A DNA stretch of 64,000 nt, from contig JAXDQS010000010.1 in NCBI GenBank assembly GCA_034667725.1, forward strand, positions 217,937-281,936, in the 5' to 3' direction. Positions 5,153-44,598 of this stretch are shown here, in pieces. The stretch comes from Thermoplasmata archaeon. Lineage in GTDB: Archaea > Thermoplasmatota > E2 > JACPAO01 > JAHFTW01. The position numbers and the translations under genes are program-made. Each line of letters opens with the position of its first letter. Positions within the stretch are counted from its first letter, which is position 1. Under the pieces are notes generated by a model that saw only the letters and a program-made list of their open reading frames with translations, was not told the DNA's origin and ran no database searches.

Positions 5153-6523
5153 ATGGAACCCGTGCAGCCGCTGGGAGGCGGAGGCGCGGCGGAGGGTCCA
5201 CGGCACCGAGCTGGGAGGTTTCCTTCGTTGGCTGTCAATGACTTGTTTGGCCAGTTGCTCCAGGTCGAGCCCCTCTTCGTGAACAAGGAGGTCATGCGGG
5301 CCTCCTACACGCCCGACGACCTGCCGCACCGGGACACGGAGATCCGCTCGCTCGGCAGCCTGCTGGTCCCCGCCCTGCGCGGCGAGACCCCGTCGAACGT
5401 CTTCATCTACGGCAAGACCGGCACGGGCAAGACCGCCTGCGTCAAGTACGTCGGCAAGGAGCTCAGCCACAAGGGCGTCGAGCTCGGCAAGCGCGTCAAC
5501 CTCATCTACATCAACTGCGAGATCGTCGACACCCAGTACCGCGTCCTGCAGAACATCGCCAACGCCTTCGTCCCCGCAGAGAACTGGAACCACCGCATCC
5601 CCTTCACCGGCTGGCCCACGGACGAAGTGTACGAGGCGCTGCGGCGCTACGTCGACGGCTGGATGAAGGCCGACGACACCCAATGGGTCCGCGACCCCAG
5701 CCGCGTCGGCGGCGAGGTCACCATCATCGTGCTCGACGAGGTGGACAAGCTCAAGGGCGACGAGGTCCTCTACAACCTCACCCGCATCAACGGCGACCTG
5801 GCCCAGAACAAGGTCAGCGTCATCGGCATCTCGAACGACCTCAAGTTCACCGAGTTCCTCGACCCCCGCGTCAAGTCGTCCCTCGGCGAGGAATCGATGA
5901 TCTTCGCGCCCTACGACGCCAAGCAGCTCGAGGACATCCTGATGCAGCGCGCCACCATGGCGCTCAAGCTGAACGTCGTCCAGGACGGCGTCGTGCCCCT
6001 GTGCGCCGCCCTGGCCGCCCGCGAGCACGGCGACGCCCGCCGCGCCCTCGACCTCCTCCGCGTCGCCGCCGAATTGGCCGAGCGCGACCGCGCCCCCAAG
6101 GTCACCGACGCCCACGTCCGCATGGCCCAGAACAAGATCGAGCTGGACCGCATCAGCGAGGTCGTGCGCACCCTGCCCACCCAGAGCAAGCTCGTCCTGC
6201 TGGCCACCATCCTCGGCGAGGAGGCCAACCGCGACCAAGGCGTCCACACCCTCACCACCGGCGAGGTGTTCGACGTCTACAAGGACCTCTGCAAGCACAC
6301 CGGCAGCGACGTGCTGACCCAGCGCCGCATCACCGACCTCATCAGCGAGCTCGACATGCTCGGCATCTTCACGGCCCGCGTCATCTCGAAGGGCCGCTAC
6401 GGCCGCACCCGCGAGATCCAGATGAGCTGCCCCATCGACAGCACCAAGCGCGTGCTGGAGGAGGACGAGCTCATCCGGACGGTCGTGCAGCACAAGCCGA
6501 AGAAGCAGCATCGTCTGACTTGA
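5153..6523 (+). CDS. orc1: Orc1/Cdc6 replication initiator (AAA+ ATPase with C-terminal winged helix)
   Basis: Walker A GKTGTGKT, Walker B IIVLDEVD, and the conserved N-terminal YTPDDLPHRDTEI motif. Start uncertain: in-frame ATG at 5153 or TTG near 5228; the ORF-track start at 5000 is probably too far upstream. Confidence 0.85.
   Translation: MEPVQPLGGGGAAEGPRHRAGRFPSLAVNDLFGQLLQVEPLFVNKEVMRASYTPDDLPHRDTEIRSLGSLLVPALRGETPSNVFIYGKTGTGKTACVKYVGKELSHKGVELGKRVNLIYINCEIVDTQYRVLQNIANAFVPAENWNHRIPFTGWPTDEVYEALRRYVDGWMKADDTQWVRDPSRVGGEVTIIVLDEVDKLKGDEVLYNLTRINGDLAQNKVSVIGISNDLKFTEFLDPRVKSSLGEESMIFAPYDAKQLEDILMQRATMALKLNVVQDGVVPLCAALAAREHGDARRALDLLRVAAELAERDRAPKVTDAHVRMAQNKIELDRISEVVRTLPTQSKLVLLATILGEEANRDQGVHTLTTGEVFDVYKDLCKHTGSDVLTQRRITDLISELDMLGIFTARVISKGRYGRTREIQMSCPIDSTKRVLEEDELIRTVVQHKPKKQHRLT
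6485..6519 (+). repeat. Direct repeat copy 1 (last 35 nt of the orc1 coding sequence)
   Basis: gtgcagcacaagccgaagaagcagcatcgtctgac recurs 96 bp downstream. Confidence 0.7.
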
Positions 6524-6580
6524 CCTGGCCGGGGGGCCGCAGGCCTTGCCGCGGGGCGACCCTCGGGGCGGAGCCCCCGG

Positions 6581-6620
6581 GTGCAGCACAAGCCGAAGAA
6601 GCAGCATCGCATCGTCTGAC
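6581..6620 (+). repeat. Direct repeat copy 2 (duplicate of orc1 3' end with a 5-nt insertion)
   Basis: gtgcagcacaagccgaagaagcagcatcgCATCGtctgac; identical to copy 1 except for the inserted catcg. Confidence 0.7.
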
Positions 6621-6626
6621 GCCATC

Positions 6627-6668
6627 CACCGAGGACACCGAGACCACCGAAGTTCGGTGTCCTCGGTG
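6627..6668. terminator. Perfect 14-bp-stem hairpin between convergent orc1 and nob1
   Basis: caccgaggacaccg (6627-6640), 14-nt loop, cggtgtcctcggtg (6655-6668). Lies between two convergent stop codons. Confidence 0.4.
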
Positions 6669-6682
6669 CGCTCGGCGGATGG

Positions 6683-7201
6683 TCAGTCGTTGCCCCGCAT
6701 CGCCGGCTTGTGGGCTCCGCCCTGCACCGGCTTCGCCTTCACCGGCGACCCGCACACGATGCACTCCTCGCGCTTCGGCATCGTGTCGAACCAGCGGCCG
6801 CACCCGATGCAGCGCGGCCGGAAGTCCAGCGTCGCCGCGATGCCTTCGGTGTTGACCGTCTGCGTGCGCACGCCCAGGCGGCGCGCCACATCGAGGAGCG
6901 TGTAGTCGTCCGTGACCAGCGTGCCCGCCAGGTCGACGGCGAGGGCCGCGAGGCTCAGGTCGGCCGCGGACAGGCGGACCAGGTTGCCGGCCGCGGTGGC
7001 GACGTCGCGCACCCGCTCGACGGCCTCGGGTGTTGCGTCGCGGACCTGGAGGCCGGTGGCGATCCAGTTGTCGTAGCGGCGCGCGTCGCGGCCCCCCGTG
7101 GAGATTTCGGCGGCGGCCTCCGGCGTCGTGGCCCAGTTGGCAGAGCGGGGCGGGTCTTTGCCGCCAAGGAGCAGGCTGGTGTCCAGGACGAGCCAGGGCA
7201 C
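6683..7201 (-). CDS. nob1: Nob1-like PIN-domain endonuclease with C-terminal zinc ribbon
   Basis: 172 aa. N-terminal PIN-like acidic residues (VLDTS..., TDDYTLLDVA) and C-terminal CIGCGRWF...ECIVCG zinc ribbon, the archaeal Nob1 architecture. Confidence 0.6.
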   Translation of the reverse strand: MPWLVLDTSLLLGGKDPPRSANWATTPEAAAEISTGGRDARRYDNWIATGLQVRDATPEAVERVRDVATAAGNLVRLSAADLSLAALAVDLAGTLVTDDYTLLDVARRLGVRTQTVNTEGIAATLDFRPRCIGCGRWFDTMPKREECIVCGSPVKAKPVQGGAHKPAMRGND

Positions 7202-17793: not shown

Positions 17794-19233
17794 ATGCGCG
17801 TGCTTGCCGTCCTCCTCCTTGCCCTCCTGGTCCTGGTCCCCGCGGCCGACGCCCAGCACGCCCACGAGGAGGGCGGCAGCGTGCGCATCCTTGCGGAGGG
17901 GCCGGTCCACGCCGGCGTCCTGGCCGGCTTCGCCGCCTTGGCCTTGGGCGACGACGACGCGCCGGACTTCCACCAGCAGAACCACCTGCGCGTGACGCAG
18001 GGCGGCCTGGTGCTGTTCGAGACCACGCCCGACTCCGGCCACGACTACGACGGTGTTGCCCGCTTCGCGCTCGCCTTCCCCGCCCCTGGGCCGTACCGCG
18101 TCGAGGCGCTGGACGACGCCGGCGCGGTCCTCGGCGCGCTGGAGGGCGAAGCGTTGCCCGTCCCCACCGAGGCCGGGACCTTGGCCGTCGCCCACAGCCT
18201 GGTCGACGGCATGGTGCGCTTCGACGCCATCGTGTCCGTCGGCGGCGTCCAGGTGCCGTCCCGGCTGCAGCTCGAGGCGATGGCGGACGGGAAGCCCGCG
18301 GCCCGCCTCGCGACCGTGGCCGTCGCGCACGTGGTGGAGCTTGGGCTCGACCCCGGCGTGACCTACCGGTTCCGCCTGCTCGCGACCCCGCTCGACGCGC
18401 CGTTCGCGCCCGTCGTCCACGAGGAGACGTTCGCTGTCGAGGCCGCCCCGCGCGCCGACCCGCCCGCCCTGCCGTCCCCCAGCCCCATGCCGGGCAACGC
18501 CGTGGTGCGCGCCGGCGCGGGCAACGCCACCCTGCTCGGCACCTACGACCCCTGGACCGCGGTCGGCCCGGACACCCGCGCCCGCTTCGCCGCCGTCGGC
18601 CCCGCCGGCCCCATCGCCGTCCGGATGCACGACGCCGCCGGCCGGGTCCTGCTGGCCACCGACCAGCTCGCCGGCCCCGTCGCCGAGGTCACGACCACCC
18701 GCCCGCCCGGCGCCTACACCATCGCGTACACCGCCGGCGGCGAAACCGTCGAGCTGCCGTGGACCGTGCTGCCGCCCAGCGACCCGTCCGCCGTCGGCCC
18801 GCAGGACCTCGTCTTCACCGCCCCCGCCGCCCAGGCCGGCGTCCCGTTCGACCTCGCGCTGGCCTCGCACGACCTCGCCGGCCGCCCGTTCGACCACACC
18901 GAGGTCGAGCTCGAGGTCGCCCGCGCCGGCGTCCCCGTCGTCCAGGCCAAGCTGCACACCCACGGCGACGGCAGCTTCCCGCTCCGCCTCGCCCTTCAGG
19001 AAGGGCGCCAGGACGTGCGCGCCCAGGTCTACCCGCTGGAGGCGCGCACCGCCCTGGCCGGCCCCGCCCTGCTGGCAAGCTTCGACGTGGCCCCCGGCGC
19101 CCCCGCCGAGCCCACCCCTGCCCCACAGGACCAAGAGGCCGAGGCGGCGCCCTTGGGCGCGCCCCTGGCCGTGCTGGCCGTGCTGGCGGCGGGCGGGCTG
19201 CGGCGCGGGGGCCGCGGCTGCAAAGGATTTTGA
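17794..19233 (+). CDS. Secreted protein with C-terminal membrane-anchor tail
   Basis: Signal peptide MRVLAVLLLALLVLVPAADA; C-terminus GAPLAVLAVLAAGGLRRGGRGCKGF (short motif, hydrophobic helix, basic end). Confidence 0.5.
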   Translation: MRVLAVLLLALLVLVPAADAQHAHEEGGSVRILAEGPVHAGVLAGFAALALGDDDAPDFHQQNHLRVTQGGLVLFETTPDSGHDYDGVARFALAFPAPGPYRVEALDDAGAVLGALEGEALPVPTEAGTLAVAHSLVDGMVRFDAIVSVGGVQVPSRLQLEAMADGKPAARLATVAVAHVVELGLDPGVTYRFRLLATPLDAPFAPVVHEETFAVEAAPRADPPALPSPSPMPGNAVVRAGAGNATLLGTYDPWTAVGPDTRARFAAVGPAGPIAVRMHDAAGRVLLATDQLAGPVAEVTTTRPPGAYTIAYTAGGETVELPWTVLPPSDPSAVGPQDLVFTAPAAQAGVPFDLALASHDLAGRPFDHTEVELEVARAGVPVVQAKLHTHGDGSFPLRLALQEGRQDVRAQVYPLEARTALAGPALLASFDVAPGAPAEPTPAPQDQEAEAAPLGAPLAVLAVLAAGGLRRGGRGCKGF

Positions 19234-19265
19234 GGCACCAGCGCCGTGGGCCGCTCGGTCTGTCG

Positions 19266-21383
19266 ATGCGTCCAGCGATGCTGCTTCCAGCCTTGGCCCT
19301 GGTGGGCCTGGGGCTTCTCACGATGATCCCGCACGAGGCCCAGGCCCAGGCGGTCATCGACAACGGCTTCGTCCAGGTCGGCGTCCGCGCCGACGGCGCC
19401 CTCATCGCCTCCCCGGTCTCGACCGACGGCGACTGCACCGTCGTCGGCGGCGTCACGGTCTGCACCGGCGGCGCCGGCACGGGCCTGGTCGGCCTGCGCC
19501 ACATGGCCACCGGCTACGAGTCGACGGCCGACGGCTGCGCCTGCGAGACCTGGGGCGTGTCGTACGACGGCGCCGTGTCGGGCTACGCCCGCAGCGGCAG
19601 CGCCGGCCCCGGCTCCGGCCTCACGCCGGTGGCGTTCTCGAACACCGCCAGCACCGCCGTGGCCACCGTGCGCGCCGGCGACCTGCTGGTCACCCACGAC
19701 TTCCACCCGACGGCACTCACCAACGACCTGTACGAGGTCAACGTCACCATCGAGAACACCGGCCCCGCCCACGTCGACCTGCGCTACCGCCGCGCCATGG
19801 ACTGGGACATCCAGCCCACCGCCTTCAGCGAGTTCGTCACCATCGAGGCCAAGAGCCCGCTGCCGACCGCGCTGTCCTGCTCCAGCGACGACGGCTTCGC
19901 CACCGGCAACCCCCTCAGCGGCCTCGGCTCGATCCTGATGTACGGCCCCGGCTGCGGCTCCGACTTCATCGACTCCGGCCCGAGCGACCACGGCGCCGCC
20001 TTCGACTTCCACTTCGGCGTCATCGCGGCCAGCGAGAAGCGCGAGTTCCGCATCTACTACGGCGCCGCCTCCTCCGAGATCGACGCCTACGCCGCCATGG
20101 CCGCGGTGGGCGCCGGCGTCTGGACCTTCGGGCAGTGCAACCCGGGCAGCAACCCCGCCTGCGACACCAGCACGGGCGCGCCGGCCACCTTCATGTTCGG
20201 CTTCGACGACGTCGACATCATCCCGGTCAAGCCCGCCAACATCCCGCCCGTCGCCGCCGGCACCTACCTCGCCCGCACCGCCTGCGAGGACTCCCGCGTC
20301 TCGTTCGACGGGAGCAAGAGCACCGACCCCGACGGCTTCGTCCGCACCCACGCCTGGACCTTCGGCGACGGCGGCAACGCCACCGGCGAGAAGGTCGACC
20401 ACCTCTACAAGGCGCCGGGCCCCTACACCGTGACGCACACTGTGATGGACAACAACGGCGCCCTCACCACCCGCACCTTCACCATCGTGAGCGCCGGCGA
20501 CCCCGACTGCTGCCTCAACCTCAACCCGGTCCCGCCCATCGACGCGATGGAGTTCGACGCCGTCGGCTTCCTGCCCATCGTCTGGGACTTCGAGGACGGC
20601 CCCTACAGCTTCGACCTGTTCCCGCTGCCGACGGGCGCCACCTTCAACCCCGCCACCGGAGAGTTCGGCTGGCCCACCGCGGCCGGCGACGCTGGCGCCT
20701 ACACCCTCACCCTGCTGGCCACGGACGGCGGCGGCTGCACCGTCGGCACCGAGGTCGACATCGCCGTCCGCCCGTACCCGCCGCCGCTGCCGCCCGCCGA
20801 GGACCATGACCTCGACGGCATCGCCAACGCGCAGGACAACTGCCCCGACCGCGTCAACCGCGACCAGGGCGACGCCGACCGCGACGGCCTCGGCGACCTG
20901 TGCGACGACGACCCCGGCCTCACGGGCCCGGAGGCCGAGGCCGCGCGCCGGCTGCGCGCCGGCGGCGCGCGCGACCGCGACCGCGACGGGGTCGCCGACG
21001 TGGCCGACGTCTGCCCCGACGTGGCCGACCGCGACCAGAAGGACCTCGACGGCGACCGCCTCGGCGACCTGTGCGACCCGGACGCCGACGGCGACACGGT
21101 GCGCGACCAGCCCGCCGCCGGCATCCCGGCCGACAACTGCCTCCAACTGGCCAACGCGGACCAGGCCGACGCGGACGGCGACGGCGTCGGCGACGCCTGC
21201 GCCGCCGACCGCCTCGCCGCCGCCCAGGCGCGCAGCAGCGACGCCGAAGGCCGGCCCGCCGTCCTGGCCGCCGAGCAAGGCGGCCTCGGCTCGGGCGCCA
21301 AGGCGTTCATGCTGGCGTTCGCCGCCGCAGGCCTCCTGGGCCTGCTGGTGGTCTTGGCCATCCTGCGCCGCAACGAAGCGTAG
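19266..21383 (+). CDS. Surface protein with PKD domain, Ig-like domain, TSP3 calcium-binding repeats and C-terminal TM anchor
   Basis: Signal peptide; PKD motif (FDGSKSTDPDGFVRTHAWTFGDGGNATGEKVDHLYKAPGPYTVTHTV); Asp-rich DxDxDGxxDxxDNCP repeats; C-terminal AFMLAFAAAGLLGLLVVLAILRRNEA. Paralogous to 57188..59221 and 61203..63659. Confidence 0.6.
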   Translation: MRPAMLLPALALVGLGLLTMIPHEAQAQAVIDNGFVQVGVRADGALIASPVSTDGDCTVVGGVTVCTGGAGTGLVGLRHMATGYESTADGCACETWGVSYDGAVSGYARSGSAGPGSGLTPVAFSNTASTAVATVRAGDLLVTHDFHPTALTNDLYEVNVTIENTGPAHVDLRYRRAMDWDIQPTAFSEFVTIEAKSPLPTALSCSSDDGFATGNPLSGLGSILMYGPGCGSDFIDSGPSDHGAAFDFHFGVIAASEKREFRIYYGAASSEIDAYAAMAAVGAGVWTFGQCNPGSNPACDTSTGAPATFMFGFDDVDIIPVKPANIPPVAAGTYLARTACEDSRVSFDGSKSTDPDGFVRTHAWTFGDGGNATGEKVDHLYKAPGPYTVTHTVMDNNGALTTRTFTIVSAGDPDCCLNLNPVPPIDAMEFDAVGFLPIVWDFEDGPYSFDLFPLPTGATFNPATGEFGWPTAAGDAGAYTLTLLATDGGGCTVGTEVDIAVRPYPPPLPPAEDHDLDGIANAQDNCPDRVNRDQGDADRDGLGDLCDDDPGLTGPEAEAARRLRAGGARDRDRDGVADVADVCPDVADRDQKDLDGDRLGDLCDPDADGDTVRDQPAAGIPADNCLQLANADQADADGDGVGDACAADRLAAAQARSSDAEGRPAVLAAEQGGLGSGAKAFMLAFAAAGLLGLLVVLAILRRNEA

Positions 21384-21438: not shown

Positions 21439-22041
21439 TCAGAACAGGCTCGCGACCCCGGACACCATGCCGGAGAAGAACGCCTCGACCTGGCCCATGA
21501 AGCTCGCGTCGGCCTCGACGTCCGCCTGGGCGTCGACCGAGGCGTCCGCCTGCAGGCCCGCGTCGAGCTGGGCGTCGGCCGCGACGTCCGCGTCGACCGC
21601 CGCGTGGGCGTCCGCGGCCACGTTGGCGGCCGCGTCGAGCGCGCCGTCGACCGTGCCGTGGACCGTCGACTGGGCGGTCGCGGTGGCGGTGCCGGCCAGG
21701 CCGAGGCCCGTGCCGAGGGCACCGGTGGCGGTCGCCTGCGCGTCCGCCGTCACGTCGGCCGCGGCGTGGGCCGCGGCGTCGAGCTGGGCGTCGGCGTCGA
21801 CGCTGGCGTCGAGGGCCGCGTCGAGGTTGGCGTCGACGTTGGCGTCAAGGCTGGCGTCCGCATCCGCGGCGGCGTCCAGGCCAGCGTCCGCGGCGGCGTC
21901 GGCGGCAGCGTCCGCCGCGCCGGTCGCGCCGAGGCCGAGCATGGCCGTGCCCGGGATGGCCAGGGCCAGCAGGGCAGTCAGGGCAAGGGCAGCAAGGCCC
22001 GCCTTCTTCCAGGGTTTCTTGGGGGTGTGTTGGGGTTCCAT
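21439..22041 (-). CDS. Ala/Asp-rich low-complexity secreted protein
   Basis: Signal peptide after the internal Met (MEPQHTPKKPWKKAGLAALALTALLALAIPGTA), then ~150 aa of D-A-rich degenerate repeats; hydrophobic C-terminus. Confidence 0.4.
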   Translation of the reverse strand: MEPQHTPKKPWKKAGLAALALTALLALAIPGTAMLGLGATGAADAAADAAADAGLDAAADADASLDANVDANLDAALDASVDADAQLDAAAHAAADVTADAQATATGALGTGLGLAGTATATAQSTVHGTVDGALDAAANVAADAHAAVDADVAADAQLDAGLQADASVDAQADVEADASFMGQVEAFFSGMVSGVASLF

Positions 22042-22252
22042 CGGGGTCACCTTGTCTCCTGGTCCGACGGCGCGGCACATAAGGCGACGCGATACGCCGG
22101 GAAACTCCCAGCACCTCCTCAGGCAGGCTTATCTACGAACCATCCTGAGCCGGCCCCCGACGCCTGTGCCGGGTCCCCCCGGGTCGGTCGTTGAAAGATG
22201 AAGGAGGGCGGGGCGCCACCGCGGCCCAAACTCCCTATGGAGACAGACAACT

Positions 22253-25859: not shown

Positions 25860-26891
25860 ATGCAGCTCGAGGTGGCCCTCCTGGCCGTCGTCGCTGTCGG
25901 GACCGCCATTCTGGTGGTCGCCGCCGCCGGCCTGCTGTTCCGCATGGCCCGCCGCCACGCCGACGTCGTCCCCGCCGCCCGCGCCAAGGCCGTCGGCGCC
26001 CTCGTGGCCAGCCTGGTGCTCGGCGGCGTCGGCATCGTGGCCCTGCACGGCTTCGAGTCCGCCGGCCACGACGGCATCCACGCCACCTTCACCCAGAACC
26101 TCAACAAGACCGTCGGCGAGTCCGACTACCTCGAGGCCCAGAAGGCGCGCGTCAGCAAGACCAACGCCATCGACAACATCCTGCCCGCCAAGATCCTGGC
26201 CGCCCAAGACGCGGTCAACGCGACCCCGGAAGGCACCAAGCAGCGCACCAACGCCGAGGGCAACCTCACCGCCCTCCAGGCCGCCCTCGTCACCGCCCAC
26301 GCCGACCTTGCCGCCGCGGAGGCCACCATGAAGCGCCTCGCCGGCAACCACCTCCTCTGGCTCAAGGTCCAGCCGCACTTGGCCAAGCACACGCCCGAAG
26401 GCGACGCCGAGGCCCACGACCTCATCGAGCGCTCCCTGCACGCCAGCACCGTCGGCGGCGTCCTCTCCATCGGCCCCGACGGCGCCTGCGCCCGCGACGC
26501 CAAGACCGGCGACTGCACCCAGCCCGTCACCGCGGCGGCGCTCGAGCACGACTTCAAGGACTCCCACCAGCAGCCGCTCACCATGGAGCAGGGCTTCGAG
26601 GACGCCTACCACCACAAGGCGGAGTTCACCCACCAGATGGAGAGCCAGATGGCCTGGTTCTTCTACCCCAGCCTGACCGGCCTGTTCCTCGCGCCGTTCG
26701 CCTTCGTCGGCGGCCACTTCCTCAGCCGCGCCTTCGTCCCCAGCGACTCAGTCGGCTTCAAGAAGTACCCCGGCACCAGCGCCGGCTTCTTCCTGCTGCT
26801 GGGCGGGTTTGGCTTGCCGGCGCTGCCCTTCAGTGCATGGCTGCTGCGCGACTTCGCGAAGCGCAGCGCCGAAGGGCAGATCGCGCTGTAG
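25860..26891 (+). CDS. Hypothetical membrane protein
   Basis: 343 aa; N-terminal and C-terminal TM helices flank a soluble middle domain. No family recognised. Confidence 0.4.
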   Translation: MQLEVALLAVVAVGTAILVVAAAGLLFRMARRHADVVPAARAKAVGALVASLVLGGVGIVALHGFESAGHDGIHATFTQNLNKTVGESDYLEAQKARVSKTNAIDNILPAKILAAQDAVNATPEGTKQRTNAEGNLTALQAALVTAHADLAAAEATMKRLAGNHLLWLKVQPHLAKHTPEGDAEAHDLIERSLHASTVGGVLSIGPDGACARDAKTGDCTQPVTAAALEHDFKDSHQQPLTMEQGFEDAYHHKAEFTHQMESQMAWFFYPSLTGLFLAPFAFVGGHFLSRAFVPSDSVGFKKYPGTSAGFFLLLGGFGLPALPFSAWLLRDFAKRSAEGQIAL

Positions 26892-31068: not shown

Positions 31069-33003
31069 ATGCGCCCCCTCCTCTTGGTGGCCACCGCCCT
31101 GCTGATGTTCGCGTTCGTGGCCAGCGCCCCGCACGCGGACGCCCAAGGCGCTTCCACACTTACCGTCACCATCTGCGCCCAGCCGACCTATTCCGAGTCC
31201 AAGGACACGGCCCTGTGCGAGGGCCGCGGCTTGGCGGGCGCCACCGTCCGCGTCACCCGCAACGGCCCGCTCGGCAACAACGTCGGCGCCGTCGACCGCA
31301 GCGCGACCACCGACGCCAACGGTGTCGCCGCCTTCGACGCCTTGGCGGACGGCACCTACAACCTCCAGGCGACCCGCGCCGGCTTCGCCGCGCGCACGGC
31401 CACCGTCGAGGTCGCGGGCGCCACCAAGGCGGCCTACACCCTCGCCGGCGTCCCGGTCGAGTTCCAAGGCATCGTCAAGGACGCCGCCGGCAAGCCGGTG
31501 GCCGAGGCCATCGTCACGGTGTGCTGCTCGCGCGACTCCTCGTACCAGCCGCCCGTCGCCACCGGCGAGGACGGCCTGTTCCGGGTCGCGACCACGGGCG
31601 GCTACCAGTCGGTCGGCGCCTACGACGCCCCAGGCTTCGTGCCTTACAACGCCGAGGTGCTGGTGGACGGCAGCCGCCAGGACATCACCCTGGAGCGGGT
31701 CCCCGCCCAGGACGCCGAACTCCACGGCGTCGTGCGCGACCAGGACGGCAAGCCCGTCGCCGGCCTGCGCATCGACGCCAACCCCTCGTGCTGCCACACC
31801 GAGCCGATGCCGGCCGACGAGCCGGGCGCGCCCGCGTCGTCGGTGCCCCCCAGCCCCGGCTACGCCTACTACGGCAACCACACCACGACCGCCAGCGACG
31901 GCTCCTACGCGATCCACGTCTACGGCGGCGCCACCGTCGGCCTGCGCGTCGGCTCCGAGGACTTCGCCCCGCTCTACAAGGACGTCCAGGTCGGCAAGGG
32001 CGCCTCCGTGCGCGCGGACCTCGACGTCAAGCGCTACCCGCCCCGCGACGCCCGCATCGAGGGCCGCGTCACCGACGGCGACGGCCACGGCATCGGCTCG
32101 GTCGCGATCACGGTCAACAACCCCGAGTTCGGCCGCACCGAGCAAGGCGGCCAATGGTGCGCCGCCGCCCCCGTGCCGATGATGGCAGAGGGCGACGCCA
32201 TCGCCAAGCCCGCCATCTGGGCCGGCCCGGAGTGCTCCCTCAGCGTGCAGGCCGACGGCAGCTTCTCCGGCCTCGTGACCCCCGGCTACAGCATCGTCAC
32301 CGTGTACTACGTCTGCATGGAGGGCGACTGCGCCGACGGCTACTACCCGTCCGTCCGCACCCTGGTGCTGCGCTCCGGCACCCAGCGCCTCGACGTCGCC
32401 CTCGTGCCCCGCCCCGGCCCCGACGCCACCCTGTCCGGCTACCTCGTGGACGCCGACCAGCGCGAAGGCATCGCCGGCCCCGACGCCCGCATCGACCTCT
32501 ACAACCTCGACAACGGCGCCTGGGGCAGCGCGGTCGCCGACGCGCAAGGCTCCTACAAGATCCGGCTCCGCAGCGGCCTCCACCAGGTCACCGCCTACGC
32601 CGACGGCCACCTCCACTGGGAAGGCATCGTCAGGGTCGAGCCCGGCGACAACGCGCTCGACATCCTCATGACGGCCGGCCAGGACACCGGCTACGGCGGC
32701 TGCTGCTACCTCGCGCAGGACAGCAAGGGCATGGCCACCACCGCCACCGCCTCCCCGGCCCCGATGACGCCGGGCGACGACGGCGGCAGCCGCGTCGCCG
32801 AGCAGGAGCTGCGCCAGAACCTCGCCGCCAACACGCCCGCCTTCGAGGACCTCAACGGCGGCCTCGGCCCGTACGACCCGGACGAGCGCCCCGCCCCGAA
32901 CAACGGCACCGGCACCCGCGCCAGCCCGGCGCTGGGCCTGCTGACGGTGCTGGGCGTCGCGGCCGCGATGGTCGTGGCGCGGCGCAAGGGCCGCGAATCC
33001 TAG
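31069..33003 (+). CDS. Surface protein with carboxypeptidase-regulatory-like beta-sandwich repeats and C-terminal TM anchor
   Basis: Signal peptide; repeated GxxGAxVxV...DxxGxxxF...DGTYxL modules; C-terminus SPALGLLTVLGVAAAMVVARRKGRES. The ORF-track start at 31042 would begin inside the TATA-like box. Confidence 0.55.
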   Translation: MRPLLLVATALLMFAFVASAPHADAQGASTLTVTICAQPTYSESKDTALCEGRGLAGATVRVTRNGPLGNNVGAVDRSATTDANGVAAFDALADGTYNLQATRAGFAARTATVEVAGATKAAYTLAGVPVEFQGIVKDAAGKPVAEAIVTVCCSRDSSYQPPVATGEDGLFRVATTGGYQSVGAYDAPGFVPYNAEVLVDGSRQDITLERVPAQDAELHGVVRDQDGKPVAGLRIDANPSCCHTEPMPADEPGAPASSVPPSPGYAYYGNHTTTASDGSYAIHVYGGATVGLRVGSEDFAPLYKDVQVGKGASVRADLDVKRYPPRDARIEGRVTDGDGHGIGSVAITVNNPEFGRTEQGGQWCAAAPVPMMAEGDAIAKPAIWAGPECSLSVQADGSFSGLVTPGYSIVTVYYVCMEGDCADGYYPSVRTLVLRSGTQRLDVALVPRPGPDATLSGYLVDADQREGIAGPDARIDLYNLDNGAWGSAVADAQGSYKIRLRSGLHQVTAYADGHLHWEGIVRVEPGDNALDILMTAGQDTGYGGCCYLAQDSKGMATTATASPAPMTPGDDGGSRVAEQELRQNLAANTPAFEDLNGGLGPYDPDERPAPNNGTGTRASPALGLLTVLGVAAAMVVARRKGRES

Positions 33004-33803
33004 CGAAGCGAGGACGCGGCCTTCGCCAGCTCCACGAGCCCCGCCGCCGTGCGCGTGCCGAACCAGGTGAGCGCCTCGCCGTCCACCACCCGCACCCGCC
33101 CGGGCGCGCCGCACGGCCCGAGGCCGGCGGTGTCGACCGGCTTGCGGTGGAACGGGAACGGCTCCGTGGGCAGCAGCGTCCACGCCGCCCCGGCGGCGCG
33201 GACCTCGGCGTCCGTGACCTCGAAGTAGCGCGGCCCCGCGTGGTCCCCGAAGACGTTGCGCAGGCCCGCCGCCGCCAGCATCGCGCTGGGGTAGCTGGTG
33301 CCGTCGAACGTCATCCACGGATGCCAGATCGGGCAGAACACCGGCACCGGCGACGCGGGCCGGGGCAGCGCCGCGACGGCAGCGTCGAAGCCGGCCCGCC
33401 AATGCTGGGCGGCCGCCTCGGCGCCGCCGCCGACCCGCCGCGCCAGGCGCAGCACGAAGGCCGCCGCGTCGTGCGGGGTCGCGATGTCGCTCCACAGCAC
33501 CTCGACGCCGTGGGCTTCCAGCGCGTCCACCAGCGCCTTGGGGTTCTCGTCCTTGTCGGCCACCACGAGCGTGGGCCGCAGCGCGAGGATCTTGTCGAGG
33601 CTGGCGTCCTTGGTGCCGCCCACGTGCGGGACCGTCTTGGCGGCCTCCGGCGCGATGCAGAACCGGGTGCGGCCGACGACCTGGCCGCCGGCGCCGAGGT
33701 CGAACAAGGTCTCGGTGTGGCTCGGCACCAGGCTCACGATGCGCTGCACGGACGGGGCAAGGCGTCGCGCGCTTGGGCCTTCCGTCGCGTCCTCCGACCA
33801 CAA
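33000..33803 (-). CDS. Periplasmic-binding-protein-like (BtuF/TroA-fold) ABC substrate-binding protein
   Basis: 267 aa, class III SBP-like pattern (IVSLVPSHTETLFDLGAGGQVVGRT..., LRPTLVVADKDEN). No obvious signal peptide. Confidence 0.55.
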   Translation of the reverse strand: MWSEDATEGPSARRLAPSVQRIVSLVPSHTETLFDLGAGGQVVGRTRFCIAPEAAKTVPHVGGTKDASLDKILALRPTLVVADKDENPKALVDALEAHGVEVLWSDIATPHDAAAFVLRLARRVGGGAEAAAQHWRAGFDAAVAALPRPASPVPVFCPIWHPWMTFDGTSYPSAMLAAAGLRNVFGDHAGPRYFEVTDAEVRAAGAAWTLLPTEPFPFHRKPVDTAGLGPCGAPGRVRVVDGEALTWFGTRTAAGLVELAKAASSLR

Positions 33804-35177: not shown

Positions 35178-38100
35178 ATGGGCTGCAAACGGTCAAGAAG
35201 GCACGGCGGTCGCTGGGCCTTGACAATGGTCGTCCACCGCTTGTCCCCGCTCGCCGCTGCCTTCATCCTGGCAGTCTCCACCCTCGCCGCCGCGCCGGCG
35301 TCGGCCCTCATCGTCGGCCCCGTCGGCCCCATCGACCCCGACCTCATCAACGTAGACTGCGAGGACAGTGCCGCCGTTAGGGCCGCCTGCAACGCGGTGG
35401 CCACCCTCACGGAGGACCCTGGCGAGATCACCGTCGGGTGCGGCGACGGGTACGCCGGCAACGCCTGCCGCGAAGCCTTGGACACCCTCGAGGACCCGCC
35501 CGCGGCCTGCGAGGCCGTCACGTTCGCGATCTGCGAGGCGGTGGCCCGGCTGCTGGCCGACGACGGCGGCGACCCCGTCGGCCAGTGCCTGCACGACCTC
35601 GGCTTCGACACCGTCGTGATGCCCCAGCCCGGCACCAGCATCGTCAACCTGGACTGCTCGCAGCTTGGCGAGACCCTGGCGAGCCTCTACGTCATCCTGG
35701 ACAACCTGGCGGCGCGGGGCGGCGCCACCCTGAACTCCTGCCTGGCGCTGTTGGGCGACGGCATTGCCAACCTGGAGTCGAGCGGCCCGCCACTGGTGGA
35801 TTGCGAAGGCCTCGGCGAGACCGCCCGCGACACCGTCCAGGCCGCCATGGACCTGGTGGACCGCGAAGCCGACGACGCCATGCGCACCGTCGAGGCGTGC
35901 GTCTACGGCGCGCCCCCGCCGTCCGCCGGCGCCGCGCTGTGCCGCTCCCTCTACAACACGCTCGTCCTCTACCTCGCCTTCGCCGTCCAGACCGGCCTCC
36001 AGGCGGCCAACCACCAGCTTGAGTGCCAAGGCCTCGACACCGTCTCCATCACGGCGCCCGCCCCCGAGGGCGACCCGCCCGCCACCTTCGGCCTGCCGGA
36101 GGAGTGCGTGACCGCCCACCTGCTCTTGACCGCCGTCCAGGAGGCCGTCGCCAACGTGCTGCGCATCGCCGGCGACCTCGCGCCCTCCGTCTCGCTCTGT
36201 GTCGCCGAGGTCCCCGGCGGCCCCACCACCGTCACCCTCGACTGCCGCTACGTCGAGCGCGTCGTGCGCACCGTCGGCGACGCCGAGGCCACCGTCATGC
36301 TCGTCGTGCAGCAATACCTCGACGACTGCCAAGGCCGCGGCGCGCCCCCCGAGGGCCTGCCGAGCTGCCGCGAGCAGGTCGAGAACCTGCAGCGCATCGT
36401 GGACCGCAACTTCGCCGGCGCCTGGCGTGCCGCCCAGGAAGCCGCCGCCGACCTGCAGGCCTGCGCCGCGGCCGCCGCCGCGAGCACCTGCGCGGCCACG
36501 CAAGACTGCGCCCTGCTGCCCTGCGTCCTGCCCGGCGCCTGCGACACCGGCTGCGCCAGCAACGGCACCACCTCCTACCCGGCGCGCGCCAACGGCACCG
36601 CCACCGACGCCCGCATCGGCAACGTCTTCGAGTTCGTGGCCCCCGTCACGGGCGCCGCGGTCCCGGTCGACGTCCACGACTACGACGGGGACGGCATCCC
36701 CGACCTGCTGGACCCCGTCAACCTCCCCTCCGAGACCCTGCGCACGACCTCCGGCGCCGACAACCTGACGCTGCTGGACGGCCTCGGCGAGCAAGGCTTC
36801 GTCCTCTTGATCGAGCCCGGCCACCGGGAGGCCCAGCTCGTGGCCGCCGACCCGCTCGGCGTGGCCCTGTCGCTGCTGCCCGTCGAGGTGCTCGACGCCG
36901 CCACCACCCTCCAGCTTTTGGGCCAGACCCACGGCGGCCACGTCGCCGACCTGCTGGCCAGCGCCCTCAACGAGAACATGACGGTGAACGTCACCTGGGT
37001 CGTCCCGCAGCTGCCCACCGTCGTCCCCCTGCATTGGGCCGGCGGCGCCATCCCCGCCGACGGCAGCTGGCTCATGGCCCGCTCCGACCCGACCCGCCGC
37101 GTCACGTTGGCGCTCTCCGGCCTTGACGTCAAGCTGGAGGCCCCCAGCGCCAGCCACGCCAGCACCGACCCCGACCTGTCGTACCGCTGGGAGTTCCTCA
37201 ACCTCTGGGGCAAGAAGGGCTTCTGCTTCGACCCCACCACCTACACCGGCGGCACCGGCCAGTGCGAAGGCAAGGCCGAGCCCGGCTGGCTGCGCGCCTA
37301 CAGCGGCCGCGCCCACTACGCCCTCCAGGCCGTCGCCGAGAACCTGGAGCGCGGCCTGTCCGACCTGGCGGCGACCCCGGCGGGCACCAACGGCACCGCC
37401 CTGGAGCCCATCCTGGCGCCGACCGAGGGCCTGCGCGGCGACGAGGTCCCCGCCGACGCCATCGACCTGTTCGACCCCTCCTCGCTGGTGCACGCCATCG
37501 GCGACAACAGCACCTCGTTCCCGCCCGGCGTCGGCGTCGACTACCAGGTCCCGGCCCGCGAGCCGCGCTCCCTGCCGCGCCCCGCCATCCTGCAAGCCCC
37601 CGACGCCCTGCTCACGACCGACGTGGACCTGTCGGCCTACCGCCCGACGCGCACCTTCCGCTTCGACGCCCAGTTCTACGAGACCCCCGGCACGCCGCGC
37701 GACCTGCAGCTGCTGACGCTGCACATCACGCCGGCCGACGGCAACGACGCCGCCCAGACCTTCGTGCTCGACGGCCGCGCCTTCACGGAGTACCTGCGCC
37801 TGCTGCCCGGCGAGCAGCTCGCCCTCGATATCGACGCCGATCACTTGGACGGCTTCGTCCAGGTCTCCAAGGACGTCAACGCCGACGGCTGGGAGGACCT
37901 CGTCGTGCAGGTGCCCCACTTCAGCACCGTCACCATGGACGTCCACAGCGACAACTCGATCGCCTACCCCATGTGGACCATGGTCAAGATGACCAGCGCC
38001 ACCGAGGGCTGGCTCACCGGCCCTTACGGCGCCATGTACAAGTACAGCGCCGGCCGCGTCTACCGTCACGACATCCCCGGCCTCGCGGGCCAGATGCGCT

Positions 38101-41100
38101 CCATCGCGCTGCACGTCGTCGGCCCCAACGACGTCTGGGTGGCGGGCGACGGCGACTGCAACCTCGCCGACCCGTCGCCGTTCATCGCCCACTACTACTA
38201 CGGCAGCTGGAGCATCTTCCGCACGTCGCAGGTCGGCCCCGGCTGGGCCTGCGAGGGCTTCATCACCATCTGGATGGACCCCACCGGCTCCTTCGGCTAC
38301 GCGGGCGGCACCGACGGCATGTGGTTCAAGTACGCCAGCGGCGCGTGGAACCCCGCCCCCAGCCCCGCGCCCGGCGCCTGCGTCCGCGACATCGCCTTCG
38401 ACAGCAGCGGCCGCGGCTACGTCGGCGCCAACACCGACTTGTGCCTGGCCAGCGGCCGCCCCGCCATCAGTTACTGGGACGGCAGCTCGTGGAGCAGCCA
38501 CAGCACCTACGGCAGCACCGAGATCTGGAGCGTCATGGACGGCTCCGGCCAATGGGCCGCCGCCATTCCCAAGGACCCGGCCACCCACGGCATCCTGCAA
38601 CAGTCCGGCTCGTCCTGGTCCCTCGCCTCCGTCCCCGTTCCGGCGGGCCATTACTACGGCATGACGCGCGCGCCCGACAGCCGCCTCTGGTTCAGCGCCA
38701 CCGACCGCAGCAACCGCGGCTTCCTGGTCGAACGCGACCCGTCCGGCACCTGGACGACGCACTGGTTCCAGACCCGCATCGGCTTCCTGCGCGACGTCTC
38801 GATGTCGTCCAGCACGGCGGGCCTCGTCGTCGGCGACAAGAACATCCTGGCCATCCAGGTCTCGTCGGCCGCCGCCGCCTCCGCCGACTGGATCTGGGAC
38901 AGCCTGTCGCCGACCTCCGGCACCACCAGCACGACGTTCGCCGGCCGCGACTCCGGCACCCGCGACCCCGACAGCGGCAGCGGCACCGTCGCGCACACCT
39001 GGAACTGGGGCGACGGCTCGGCCAACGACCTGGCCGCCAACGCCGACCACGTCTACCAGGCGCCCGGCACCTACGCCGTCACCCACCAGGTGCGTGCCAG
39101 CAGCACCGGCCAGGCCAACGCGCACGGCTGGACCGTCACGGTGAACCCCCAGTCCACCAGCATCGGCCCCAGCACCTCGGACTCGCTGCCCGCCGGCACC
39201 CGCGTGGCCCCGAAGTACTACCAGTACACCAACGCGGCCAGCGACGGCCAGGCGCATGACTTCCGCGTCGTGCTCGGCGGCGCTGCCGGCGTCAAGATGA
39301 CGATCCGCAAGGGCACCGGCATGGGCGACTTCAGCGCCGGCGGCAACTGGCCCAACTACGGCGCCGCCGGCCGCGACCTGTCCGGCCCCATCGCCTACGG
39401 CCAGTCCATCACCATCCGGGTCGAGCAGGACACCAGCGTGAGCCCCTACGGCGGCTCCTACACCCTCACGGTGACGCAGCTGCCGCCCCCGCCCAACCCG
39501 GCCTTGAGCAGCCTGGTGCCGCAGCCGATGGAGGCGCTGACCCGCGGCTACGAGGAGCTGACGTTCCGCGTCACCTGGACCGACACGCAAGGCTACCAGC
39601 CCCGCGACGCCAGCGGCGCCACCAGCCCGCCCACCATCACGCTGGACACCAACGGCGACGGCGCCCTGGAGACCTACTCCATGCACCTGGACCGGCCGCT
39701 GTTCACCGGCTCCACCTACAAGGCGATCTACTCGTACTCGACCTACCTCAAGGAAGGCAGCGGCACCCAGCCGATCTACAAGGCTTGGGACACGCAGCCC
39801 TACCAGCAGGTCGCCACCGGCGCCTGGATCTACGCCCGCGCCACCGTCCTCAAGGCCTACGACTTCGAGGCCGACGCCGTCGACCGCCTCCCGGCAGGCT
39901 TCGCCAACGTCCCGCTGGCCGGCCACCCGGTGAGCTACTGGCACGTCACCGACACCGCCAAGGCGGGCACGCCCGACCGCGTCGCCTTCGGCGCGCACGG
40001 CAAGGCCCTCTGGTTCGGCCAGGAGTCCTCCGGGAACTACGTCGACGCCGACGGCCGCGCCCCGGGCGGCGCCCTCGAGACGCCGGTGCACGACCTGAAC
40101 CGCATGGACAAGCCGGTGCTGTCGTTCGCGTCGCTCTACGAGACCCAGGACGACGGCAGCAGCATCGACGTCAAGCAGGTCCACATCAAGGCCCGCGACC
40201 CCGGCGGCGTCTGGGGCGGCTGGGTGCTGCTGCAGGCCGTCCACGGCCCCGGCTTCCTGCCCGGCCGCTGGAACACCGTGGCCGCCAGCCTCGCCGACTA
40301 CGCCGGCAAGGAGGTCGTGCTGCGCTTCCAGTTCCAGGCCGACAACGCCAACAACGGCTACCTCGGCTGGTACGTCGACGACATCGTGCTCGGCAGCGAC
40401 GCCGACGGCGACCTGATCCCCGACCTGAAGGAGGCCAACCGCGTCATCGGGCTCCGCAACGGCGCCGTCGGCCCCGTCAACGTCGCCCCCGGCCAGACCG
40501 GCGCCAGCTACGTCAACCGCGTCAGCACCTCCGGCTTCCAGGGTGTCGTCGCCGAGGCCGTCCTCTACTCCGAGCGGCCGCAGGACCTGCGCGTCGAGCT
40601 GCTGGTGCCGCCGGCGGGCACGCTCCCCGGCGACTTCCCCGCGCTCACGACCGAATTCCGGCCGTTCAAGCTGAACCCGGCCGCGGCGCCCGCCACCGAC
40701 ACGGTGTGCGGCGTCACCAGCCCGGTGCGCAACTCCCTGTCGCCCTGGTACGCGACCTACCCGAACCTGCTCTTGGACCCCGCCACCGGCTTCGACAACC
40801 CCCGCATCGGCGGCGGCTTCGGCCCCGACTCGCGCCCGACCGTCGTGCCGATCCACGCCCTGGAGTTCAAGCGGGTCGACGGCGTCGGCCTTGCCATCAA
40901 GGCGGACCTCACCGAATGCCTCAAGGCCGCCGGCTTGAGCGAGTTCGGCGTCCACGACGTCGTGCTGCGCGTCCAGAACACCGCCGCCTCCGGCACCGCG
41001 ACCATCGAGTCGTTCGCGGTCACCGGCGTCGGCCGGTCGTCGATGTTCAGCGCCCGCAGCGCCGCCATCGGCATGGGCGACTACCGCGCCAGCGACGGCG

Positions 41101-42806: not shown

Positions 42807-43938
42807 CCGCGCCCTCTTGGCCGTCGCGGCGGCGCTGCTGCTGGCCGGCTGCCTGGGGTCGGTGGACGACGGCAGCCAGGCCCCGCCGCCGGACGCCTGC
42901 GCGGACGGCGTGCCGCCGTGCGTCCGCAACGCCGACGCCGAGCTGCTGGAGGCCAAGTACGGCTTCCGGCAACTCAGCAACGGCACCGGCCGGCCGCTCC
43001 AGCCGTGGGTCACGAACGGCTTCGCCGGCTGGTCGGTGTTCTACTCGGACGCCTCCCCCCGCGTGGACCTCGCGGCGCGGACCCTGGCGGAAGATGACGA
43101 CGACGGCGCGGCCCGCGGGCTCACGCTGGCGGCCGGCGGCAAGGTCGCCTACACCTTGACGCCGCTGGCCAACGACGCGCTCGACCACGCCCACGCCCGC
43201 CTGCTGCTGCAGGACGCCGCCACCGGCGAGGCCACGCCCCTCGTGGAGGACCGCGGGCTGTATCCTCGCGCCTTCGGCCCGCCGTGGCTGCTGCTGCAAG
43301 AAGACAAGGGCGACGGCGCGCCGCGCGACCTCTGGGCCCTCCACGTCGAGACGCGGGCGCTGCAACTGGTCTCCGACCGCAGCGGCGAGGCCCACGGCGG
43401 CCCCGTCGTGACCGGCCACGCCGTCGCCGGCCACCACGCCGTCTGGGCCGAGGCCGAGCCCCAGCCGGACGGAAGCTTCGCCTACTCGGTGCGCACCCGC
43501 GACCTGGAGGCCCAAGCCGACGGCCCGACGTTCCGCGTCGCCGGCGGCGGCGAGGTCGACTGGATCGCCAGCACCGGCGCCGCCGCGGCCATCCTGGTCG
43601 GCCACGACGCGGGCGCCGACCTTTTGCTCTTCGACCCCGCCACCGGCCAGGCACGCCCGCTGGGCCCCGAGCCCGGCTGGAACGCGGTGCTCGCCGCCGC
43701 GGGCGGCGGCGCCGTCGTCGTGGCCGAGCGCCGCGGCGACGACGAGGCCCGGCTGCGCCTCATCCGCGCCGACGGCACGTCGGAGGCGCTGGCGGACCTG
43801 GAGGAGCTGGCGGTGGCGTCGATGGCCACCGACGGCCACGACCTCGTGCTGGTGGCCTACGCGTCGCCAAGCCGCGGCCTGCGCTACGAAGGCACCCAGG
43901 TCTACTGGAAGCCGCTCGACCTCGGCAATCGCGCTTAA
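42693..43938 (+). CDS. Putative lipoprotein (beta-rich), start uncertain
   Basis: Lipobox LLLAGC after a basic n-region (TSRSRALLAVAAALLLAGCLG). The only upstream in-frame ATG (42693) overlaps the giant gene's 3' end by 113 nt in another frame; a TTG at 42816 is the alternative. Confidence 0.45.
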
Positions 43939-43941
43939 GAG

Positions 43942-44598
43942 TTGCACCTCCGTCGCGCCGCCGTGGCGCGCTTTGCGCGGGGGTCCGCCCCCTGGCTGCT
44001 GGCCCCCGTGACCCTCGCGGTCGTGCTGGTGGCCTACGGTCTGCAGTCGAAGGACGTCTGGCCGTTCGTCGCCGCGGTCCTGCCGCTCTTGGTGTTCGCG
44101 TTCTTCATCGTGTTCTTCCGCGACCCCGACCGCCTGGCCTCGGAAGGCATCGCGAGCCCCGCCGACGGCACCGTGAGCTTCATCGACGAGGTGGACGACC
44201 CCGACCTCGGCCGGGTCGAGCGCTTCTCGATCTTCATGTCGCCTAAGGACGTCCACGTCAACCGCTACCCGGTGGACGGCACCGTCGTGTCGGTGCTGCA
44301 CAAGCCCGGCGGCCACGTGCCCGCCTTCAACAAGGAGGCCGAGCGCAACGAGCGGGTCGAGACCCTGCTGGCCACCGCCCACGGCCGCGTCAAGGTCATC
44401 CAGATCGCCGGCACCGTGGCCCGCCGCATCGTGCCCTACCACAAGGCCGGCGAGGCCGCCGTCAAGGGCGAGCGCTTCGGCCTCATCCGCCTCGGCTCGC
44501 GCTGCGACATCCTGGTCGCGCCCGGCACGGTGCGCTGGACCGTCCCGCCCGGCACCCAGGTCTACGCCGGCACCACCAGCCTGGGGGCGTTCAAGTGA
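43942..44598 (+). CDS. psd: Archaetidylserine (phosphatidylserine) decarboxylase proenzyme, short form
   Basis: 218 aa; N-terminal membrane helices, Psd-like core and a near-C-terminal GTTS motif consistent with the self-cleavage site of short PSDs. Confidence 0.65.
   Translation: MHLRRAAVARFARGSAPWLLAPVTLAVVLVAYGLQSKDVWPFVAAVLPLLVFAFFIVFFRDPDRLASEGIASPADGTVSFIDEVDDPDLGRVERFSIFMSPKDVHVNRYPVDGTVVSVLHKPGGHVPAFNKEAERNERVETLLATAHGRVKVIQIAGTVARRIVPYHKAGEAAVKGERFGLIRLGSRCDILVAPGTVRWTVPPGTQVYAGTTSLGAFK

Follow-up and report, generated by a model that had tools for sequence, protein, structure and literature searches.

This study concerns the C-terminal tails of a group of predicted surface proteins encoded in 64,000 nucleotides of DNA from a Thermoplasmata archaeon (GenBank assembly GCA_034667725.1, contig JAXDQS010000010.1, positions 217,937 to 281,936; this whole stretch is called the window below). 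The window is archaeal, its G+C content is 69–78%, and the relatives of its proteins come from uncultured Thermoplasmatota metagenome-assembled genomes (MAGs). We called 52 genes by codon-position G+C and scanned all 364 stop-to-stop open reading frames (ORFs) of at least 80 codons for the tail design. A first-pass annotation, made from the sequence alone, had described five surface proteins with a common tail, and both translation and the ORF scan confirmed these genes and their design (Table 1). Each of the five ORFs begins with an N-terminal signal-like hydrophobic segment, has extracellular-type domains where there are Pfam matches, and ends in a motif of small residues and Pro followed by a hydrophobic stretch, RR and a terminus of 4–10 residues, a design that the scan detected in no other called gene of the window. 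The annotation overlooked two components of the locus: a sixth tail-bearing gene that runs past the window edge, and a gene for a long form of archaeosortase A (ArtA), which we found by scanning the unassigned membrane proteins of the window. As developed below, we consider it probable, from sequence comparisons, that the tails serve this ArtA as sorting signals of a diverged PGF-CTERM type, with the lipid provided via PssA and PssD.

Table 1. Tail-bearing genes, their tails, and the sortase and lipid genes of the window (aa, amino acids; TM, transmembrane stretch).
Feature	Positions	Strand	C-terminal sequence	Details
Surface protein 1, 479 aa	17794..19233	+		no Pfam match; N-terminal signal-like hydrophobic segment
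Tail 1	19144..19230		AAPLGAPLAVLAVLAAGGLRRGGRGCKGF	AAPLGAP, hydrophobic stretch, RRGGRGCKGF; checked by translation
Surface protein 2, 705 aa	19266..21383	+		PKD_4, He_PIG and TSP_3 repeats
Tail 2	21288..21380		GSGAKAFMLAFAAAGLLGLLVVLAILRRNEA	GSGAK, TM, RRNEA; without Pro; weakest member
Surface protein 3, 644 aa	31069..33003	+		CarboxypepD_reg repeats; usual neighbor upstream of artA
Tail 3	32917..33000		RASPALGLLTVLGVAAAMVVARRKGRES	RASPALG, TM, RRKGRES; best-supported candidate substrate
Peripla_BP_2 / TroA-like substrate-binding protein	33000..33737	-		NF038402, 107.9 bits; between protein 3 and artA; context gene
Archaeosortase A (artA), long form, 427 aa	33836..35119	+		TIGR04125, 123.5 bits (cutoff 75); TIGR04178, 59.5 bits
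pssD, phosphatidylserine/archaetidylserine decarboxylase homolog	43942..44598	+		PF02666, 133.4 bits; JGI start 44008
pssA, archaetidylserine synthase homolog (CDP-alcohol phosphatidyltransferase)	44595..45443	+		PF01066; overlaps pssD stop codon
Surface protein 4, 677 aa	57188..59221	+		PKD_4, He_PIG, TSP_3; JGI start at 57152, 36 bases upstream
Tail 4	59126..59218		RAGPSVWPWVAAAALGALAAAALVAVVRRRA	RAGPSVWPW, TM, RRRA
Surface protein 5, 818 aa	61203..63659	+		IgGFc_binding, PKD_4, TSP_3; He_PIG sub-threshold; TTG start at 61203 agrees with JGI
Tail 5	63558..63656		GGGAPWAVAAVGLGAAAPLLAWAVVRRKFAAKP	GGGAPW, TM, RRKFAAKP
Sixth tail-bearing gene, 945 aa in source contig	63687..64000, continues past window	+	APAPDAIVAALALAVAVLLSRRKAGRLLRTD	L044 16536..19373; sequence given is its end (tail 6)

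Every tail places a hydrophobic helix and a basic cluster at the extreme C-terminus of a predicted secreted protein, and the tails co-occur with ArtA in the same genome and on the same contig. Three of the proteins (2, 4 and 5) are paralogs built from PKD_4, He_PIG and thrombospondin type 3 (TSP3) repeats, so the five tails are not five independent observations. The first-pass annotation was right that PGF, PEF and PIP are missing, which holds for the last 50 residues of all five proteins. Where a PGF signature would stand, the six tails read APLGAP, GSGAK, ASPALG, AGPSVWPW, GAPW and APAPDA, with Pro retained in 5/6 and Pro-Gly in 0/6. The proposed RR(K/R) end proved accurate for the RR pair, present in all five, and less so for the third K or R, present in only three. 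Among the proposed small motifs, GAP, AGP and ASP fit the lineage consensus around Pro described below, while GAK of protein 2 is not an instance because it lacks Pro.

Judged on the window by itself, the motif barely exceeds what chance would give. A Pro lies 17–21 residues before the first Arg in 4/5 tails (p = 0.03 versus proteome composition), and tails 2–5 share 18–23% identity with tail 1; the signal, for which an alignment of the tails had been suggested as a check, becomes convincing only when orthologs are added. With lineage tails included, Pro occurs at −21 to −17 in 24 of 32, compared with 2 of 9 internal hydrophobic runs that precede two basic residues (Fisher p = 0.006).

For protein 3, an exhaustive search of representatives clustered at 50% identity returned 913 matches at E ≤ 0.001 (a word-index search returned only 7), and the best 150 of the 913 were used. 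Among these, 135 are ≤1000 aa, and 125 of the 135, counting the window protein, carry a tripartite tail; the 124 ortholog tails analyzed here are these representatives minus the window protein. Pro is found between −25 and −15 from the first basic residue in 123 of the 124, with a peak at −19 (51 Pro) and −18 (49 Pro) that together comprises 100 Pro, against ∼10 per position in the linker. The lineage consensus is [A/S/V]-P-[G>A]-[L/A/F/P]-[G/A], with G in 70 and A in 20 tails directly after Pro, then L in 36, A in 31, F in 16 and P in 16, and then G in 48 and A in 22. The motif [GA][AGS]P taken from the window tails in the first-pass annotation corresponds to positions −1 and 0 of this consensus. 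Sorted by signature, 12 tails read PGF, 58 PG followed by another residue, 20 PA and 33 P followed by another residue. PG therefore stands at the signature position in 70/124 ortholog tails (57%) versus 0/6 in the window genome. In the canonical PGF tails the Pro is at −18 to −20, so that they and the variants agree in geometry; the curated PGF_CTERM model picks up 12/124, the same number as read PGF (best E-value 7.9e-10). Counted from the first basic residue, the terminal segment comprises only 3–6 residues in 112/124, and this short basic end fits a signal that gets discarded.

The window version of the signature also has close counterparts among the relatives. Its SPALG recurs exactly in several representatives (e.g., P0264, P0268 and P0363), and the ASP of tail 3 corresponds to a (K/R)-A-S-P conserved among its closest relatives, which read KASPHLEL, KASPSLQV and RASPAAGL. 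The syntenic orthologs of protein 3 end in GAPG[I/V/L]G, a helix and RRR. An APGFG ortholog of protein 3 adjoins a long-form ArtA gene in one contig (L045), and in another (L047) SPGFG and SPGLG tails occur on adjacent genes ∼5 kb from a long-form ArtA gene. Protein 1 has ten orthologs in Thermoplasmatota MAGs (30–37% identity), ending in PGF, PG[ALQ] or PxGF followed by a transmembrane stretch and RRR, as in APGPGFPLAL...RRRA, TPGFEALPLL...RRR, TPGLG, SPGAPGA and AAPLGF. Across 26 lineage tails, PGF_CTERM (TIGR04126) matches 2. The Pro motif is thus kept in the orthologs of both protein 1 and protein 3, so the prediction of a tripartite sorting or anchoring signal that goes beyond generic hydrophobicity stands. 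The further suggestion of a separate, lineage-specific system does not, because a genuine PGF stands in that place in orthologs of both proteins and the window also encodes ArtA.

The PKD/TSP3 paralogs have their own pattern. A homolog search with protein 4 was dominated by bacterial PKD-repeat proteins and left nine usable full-length relatives. At the start of the helix, P-x(0-4)-W is present in 7 of the 12 members of this family (p = 4e-6 versus Trp frequency), for instance as SPWW, VPGPW, VPTWPW, GPSVWPW, GAPW, IPAGIW and PGRNQW; among the same 12 members, the motif is missing from tail 2 and three relatives. A Pro followed by an aromatic residue in these candidate signals is reminiscent of PGF.

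The candidate enzyme is encoded 833 bases downstream of tail gene 3, with the Peripla_BP_2 gene between them on the other strand. Its score on the ArtA model TIGR04125 exceeds the cutoff (Table 1), while the next specific model, ArtH, gave 34.2 bits against a cutoff of 200, and ArtE, heimdallarchaeosortase and pacearchaeosortase were also below cutoff at ≤34 bits. A relative in contig L013 scores 130.6 bits on TIGR04125, and an identical protein (P0001) is named an archaeosortase by both NCBI and JGI, where JGI metagenome contig Ga0467041_0000015 contains this same stretch. In an alignment of the window protein with 15 other long and short archaeosortases, Cys294 (ILACTALQS), Arg335 (LNLLRN) and His354 are invariant in all 16, and the three are invariant in both alignments examined (A1 and A3). 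Cys294 and Arg335 are 41 residues apart, just as Cys173 and Arg214 are in Haloferax volcanii ArtA, in which Cys173, Arg214 and Arg253 are critical (PMC9263693). The equivalent of Arg253 could not be placed with certainty, with Arg399 being an invariant candidate. Judged by these alignments, the predicted catalytic Cys, Arg and His of the window ArtA are intact.

With 427 aa the window protein does not have the typical ArtA size of ∼270–310 residues. This long form is common to ∼90 Thermoplasmatota homologs, which carry an N-terminal segment with R..HPY..E.S and a loop of 55–95 residues before the catalytic helix. The loop (residues ∼225–285) comes in two versions: in most long-form ArtAs it contains FFYPD.YC...YC with paired Cys, and in the sub-clade of the window protein (P0001–P0010) it reads NP(N/S)GSTSD, is without FFYPD.YC...YC and has its Cys placed differently. 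A metagenome scan with the long-form alignment yielded three long-form loci only, all short and with few usable tails. The long form as such was ruled out as the cause of the degenerate signature by the canonical APGFG beside, and SPGFG near, long-form ArtA genes described above. A narrower correlation is left, in that the sampled genomes of the NPxGSTSD-loop sub-clade (the window genome and L050) carry Gly-less SP-type signatures, versus five PG-type loci; because this is in effect one evolutionary event, we regard it only as a hypothesis. It is possible, and we propose it tentatively, that the ArtA code in this sub-clade has shifted from P-G-F to a Gly-less, Phe-less signature, coinciding with the remodeled extracytoplasmic loop. 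The shifted signature may take two forms, (K/R)-A-S-P-x-aliphatic for protein 3 and its relatives and P-x-W for the PKD/TSP3 proteins.

The genes pssD and pssA lie 9 kb downstream of artA in the window. PssD scored 151.4 bits on NF038088 (anchor_synt_D, cutoff 240), and PssA scored 112.8 bits on TIGR04217 and 88.8 bits on NF038086 (anchor_synt_A), where both cutoffs are 200. Although none of these cutoffs is reached, their similarity clearly places the two predicted proteins within the wider PssA and phosphatidylserine decarboxylase families. We compared the region with eight relatives' contigs around long-form ArtA genes (L013, L014, L015, L045, L047, L048, L049 and L050). In six of the seven contigs with enough flank (L013, L014, L015, L047, L048 and L049), artA is followed by pssD and pssA with 0–2 genes between, and pssD lies <2 kb downstream of artA in 6/6 long contigs that keep the arrangement. 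A Peripla_BP_2 gene is located upstream of artA on the opposite strand in seven of the eight (all except L050), and an ortholog of protein 3 with CarboxypepD_reg repeats stands just upstream of it in six (L013, L014, L015, L045, L048 and L049). In L050, the closest relative, the arrangement is broken up, with CarboxypepD_reg and Peripla_BP_2 genes still within 5 kb. Linkage of artA with pssA and pssD is described for Methanosarcina (PMC7157517; Haft et al. 2012; Abdul-Halim et al. 2020). The locus described here resembles that cluster in the physical linkage of the sortase to both lipid genes and differs from it in the order artA-pssD-pssA, in the ∼9 kb insertion seen in the window, and in having the CarboxypepD_reg candidate substrate and Peripla_BP_2 genes as extra conserved neighbors.

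The insertion between artA and pssD holds two genes. The first, 35241..42806 (+), encodes a secreted protein of 2,521 aa that has a signal peptide, contains many Cys, matches PKD_4 weakly and lacks a C-terminal anchor, and the product of the second, 42817..43938 (+), has 373 aa and a lipobox (LLLAGC). In most of the relatives examined this site is empty or occupied by a single short gene (a 499-aa gene in L015), and by this comparison the pair looks like an insertion into a conserved operon. We considered whether the 2,521-aa protein has an internal tripartite signal of the HVO_0405 kind and rejected this, as its peak at residues 533–551 is Cys/Ala-rich rather than a helix with a basic cluster.

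Taken together, these data fit a pathway in which the proteins would be exported via their N-terminal signal peptides and then kept in the membrane by the C-terminal helix and the RR stop-transfer cluster. By analogy with H. volcanii, ArtA, a polytopic Cys/Arg/His transpeptidase-like enzyme, would recognize the short signature around Pro where the helix meets the outside, and cut off the helix with its basic tail. An archaetidylethanolamine-type lipid, the product of the neighboring PssA/PssD pair, would then be attached to the new C-terminus and would anchor the protein at the cell surface. Within this Thermoplasmatota clade, P-G-F would have loosened into [A/S/V]-P-[G/A/x]-[aliphatic or aromatic], and the curated models would miss the six tails because none keeps the Gly. 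According to PMC7157517 and PMC9263693, ArtA-dependent cleavage and lipid attachment are known only for H. volcanii substrates.

The resemblance to the PGF-CTERM/ArtA system of H. volcanii and other Euryarchaeota (TIGR04126/TIGR04125) covers the tripartite signature, helix and basic cluster at the extreme C-terminus, the spacing of Cys and Arg in ArtA, a Pro 18–20 residues before the basic cluster, a diverse set of secreted surface proteins as candidate substrates, and the presence of PssA and PssD homologs (PMC7157517; PMC9263693). The differences are that the six window-genome tails are without Gly-Phe, that only 10% of protein 3 ortholog tails read PGF, that the curated signal model fails, and that the window-type ArtA is ∼120–170 residues longer owing to its additional N-terminal segment and inserted loop.

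Several observations weigh against assigning the tails to ArtA. When the five proteins were searched, whole and as isolated tails, with the curated CTERM sorting-signal models of NCBIfam, a comparison recommended in the first-pass annotation, none reached any curated model, and PGF_CTERM was unlisted even at E ≤ 10; their weak matches (LPXTG, MYXO-CTERM, GPS-CTERM and CoaP) were all below cutoff and of a generic helix-plus-Arg kind. A profile built from the 124 protein 3 ortholog tails was used to score each tail of the window genome against 500 shuffled copies, in which the linker and motif were scrambled and the helix core and basic end retained. The fraction of shuffles scoring at least as high as the real tail was 0/500 for tail 3 and 0.016 for tail 6, a marginal 0.09 for tail 1, and 0.22, 0.26 and 0.41 for tails 4, 5 and 2, respectively. 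The tails of the PKD/TSP3 paralogs 2, 4 and 5 are thus unsupported by this profile because motif-shuffled copies score as well, and tail 2 is without any Pro. Moreover, judging from its title, Abdul Halim et al. 2015 (cited in PMC7157517) report for the H. volcanii S-layer glycoprotein that a permuted PGF prevents both cleavage and lipidation, and for this reason tails without Gly and Phe might escape processing. The sub-cutoff PssA and PssD homologs could simply be housekeeping lipid genes. Our inspection covered ∼70 kb of the genome, and the p-values are optimistic and overstate independence because the ortholog tails are phylogenetically related.

The absence of a curated match, the loss of PG and F from all six tails and the shuffling result for tails 2, 4 and 5 would also be expected if the tails were plain type-I membrane anchors, each a stop-transfer helix with a positive-inside cluster and perhaps a decayed PGF-CTERM signal, that are uncut by ArtA. 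In addition, 18/26 lineage tails match MYXO-CTERM weakly, which implies that much of the tail similarity is a generic GC-rich helix plus RRR. A plain anchor does not call for the fixed-distance Pro of 123/124 protein 3 ortholog tails, which persists whatever comes next, nor for the very short and uniform cytoplasmic ends, for the persistence of tail 3 beside artA across the clade, or for PGLG variants alongside PGFG near the same ArtA type. We therefore regard plain anchoring as unlikely for the set as a whole, with tails 2, 4 and 5 being those for which it applies most readily. The sequences back the sorting-signal reading strongly in the case of tail 3, well in that of tail 1 and weakly in that of the PKD/TSP3 tails 2, 4 and 5.

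The MYXO-CTERM likeness extends beyond the helix, as the MYXO-CTERM/myxosortase system of Myxococcota likewise has GC-rich tripartite tails ending in RRR on TSP3-repeat proteins. The myxosortase enzyme is unrelated to archaeosortase, and the MYXO-CTERM system is bacterial. All matches of the window tails to its models (TIGR03901/TIGR03382) are below cutoff, tail 3 giving 11.7 and 9.6 bits versus cutoffs of 15.85 and 20. The MYXO-CTERM signature has an invariant Cys (PMC11980579), whereas no window tail has a Cys at the helix start. Proteins 2, 4 and 5 match the Myxococcus cell-cohesion protein model MtsC (NF047638) through their TSP3 repeats (DxDxDGxxDxxDNC), at 95–106 bits with a cutoff of 350. 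These repeats suggest that the three are calcium-binding, adhesin-like surface proteins.

A stronger reading in the first-pass annotation was that the tails are a distinct lineage-specific sorting signal, which would be read by an enzyme other than ArtA. The literal [GA][AGS]P, or P..W in the PKD/TSP3 family, does differ from PGF, PEF, PIP and VPXXXP, no curated model fits, and a second enzyme could lie outside the part of the genome that we inspected. The general architecture and the enzyme superfamily are likewise shared with PEF-CTERM/ArtC, VPXXXP-CTERM/ArtB, PIP-CTERM/ArtD, ArtE, ArtH and the Heimdall- and Loki-CTERM systems, but the window tails carry none of their signatures and the enzyme scores as ArtA. 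ArtA is the only sortase-type enzyme among the window proteins scanned (not all 52 called), none of the six genes has another candidate enzyme linked to it, and the tails of orthologs form a continuous series up to canonical PGF in that same place, all of which makes a separate enzyme very improbable. Equally remote is a compositional artefact, in which 72% G+C would make helices rich in Ala, Leu, Val and Gly, linkers rich in Pro, Ala and Gly, and basic residues Arg, leaving the motif to chance as the G+C of 0.69–0.78, the p of only 0.03 for Pro placement in the window and the low identity to tail 1 would allow, since this accounts neither for the Pro peak at −19/−18 nor for the Trp enrichment after Pro in the PKD/TSP3 family, nor for the rarity of such a Pro (2/9) at internal helices before RR.

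Several other features of the window were observed along with the tails. The ORF scan also picked out two uncalled ORFs (6519..6905 and 21501..22082, the latter with low G+C at third codon positions) and 25872..26891 (+), which we did not count as a member because its design is different, with an N-terminal anchor and a hydrophobic C-terminal segment after YPGT(S/A)AGFF. The latter encodes a 339-aa conserved membrane protein with no family match; its conserved 14-residue end is RDFAKRSAEGQIAL, that of its ortholog in L004 (18288..19127) is DAKQRSIEGQIAL, and both are superficially PG-aromatic-like. The protein 1 family (L001–L010) has no Pfam or NCBIfam match and carries a His-rich motif just past the predicted signal-peptide cleavage site (AQHAHEEGG, AQHEHHEAG, QQHDHAAG or AQAHEHG) along with conserved PDFHQQNH and DSGHDYDG, which suggests a metal-binding surface protein. 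Lipobox-like LAGC starts occur on several secreted proteins, namely 42817..43938 and 59275..61125 (+) in the window and others in L013–L015 and L046–L049, and because of these the organism seems to use N-terminal lipobox anchoring beside C-terminal anchoring. The second of the two window genes, which stands between the genes for tails 4 and 5, encodes a Peptidase_S15 / Xaa-Pro dipeptidyl-peptidase-like protein. On the opposite strand, immediately downstream of the gene for tail 2, 21439..22041 (-) encodes a 200-aa protein with an N-terminal anchor and an Asp/Ala-rich, quasi-periodic body (DAAADAAADAGLDAAADADASLDANVDANLDAALDASVDADAQLD...).

The system described here is a refinement of a known one, a relaxed-signature variant, and introduces no new principle. 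ArtA in Thermoplasmatota is already named in public annotation, and our full-text literature search found no paper joining archaeosortase with Thermoplasmatota. New here are a relaxed signature missed by the curated model, a long form of ArtA, and the conservation of a substrate-artA-pssD-pssA locus. The last of these carries the linkage of sortase and lipid synthesis from Methanosarcina to another phylum-level lineage. The series PGFG, PG[LIVA]G, PALG and SPH[LIV]E at one position provides natural substrate variants for the residue requirements of ArtA, and should the tails still be processed, a Pro together with the geometry of the helix would be the minimum that archaeosortase A truly requires. 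The PGF-CTERM model, the usual means of counting archaeosortase A substrates, detected 12/124 tails of one artA-linked family and 0/6 in the window genome. If the sorting-signal reading is true, ArtA clients would be heavily under-annotated, with ∼10% detected in the protein 3 family, and because the model misses such tails, annotation of uncultured Thermoplasmatota probably mistakes their surface proteomes for ordinary membrane proteins.

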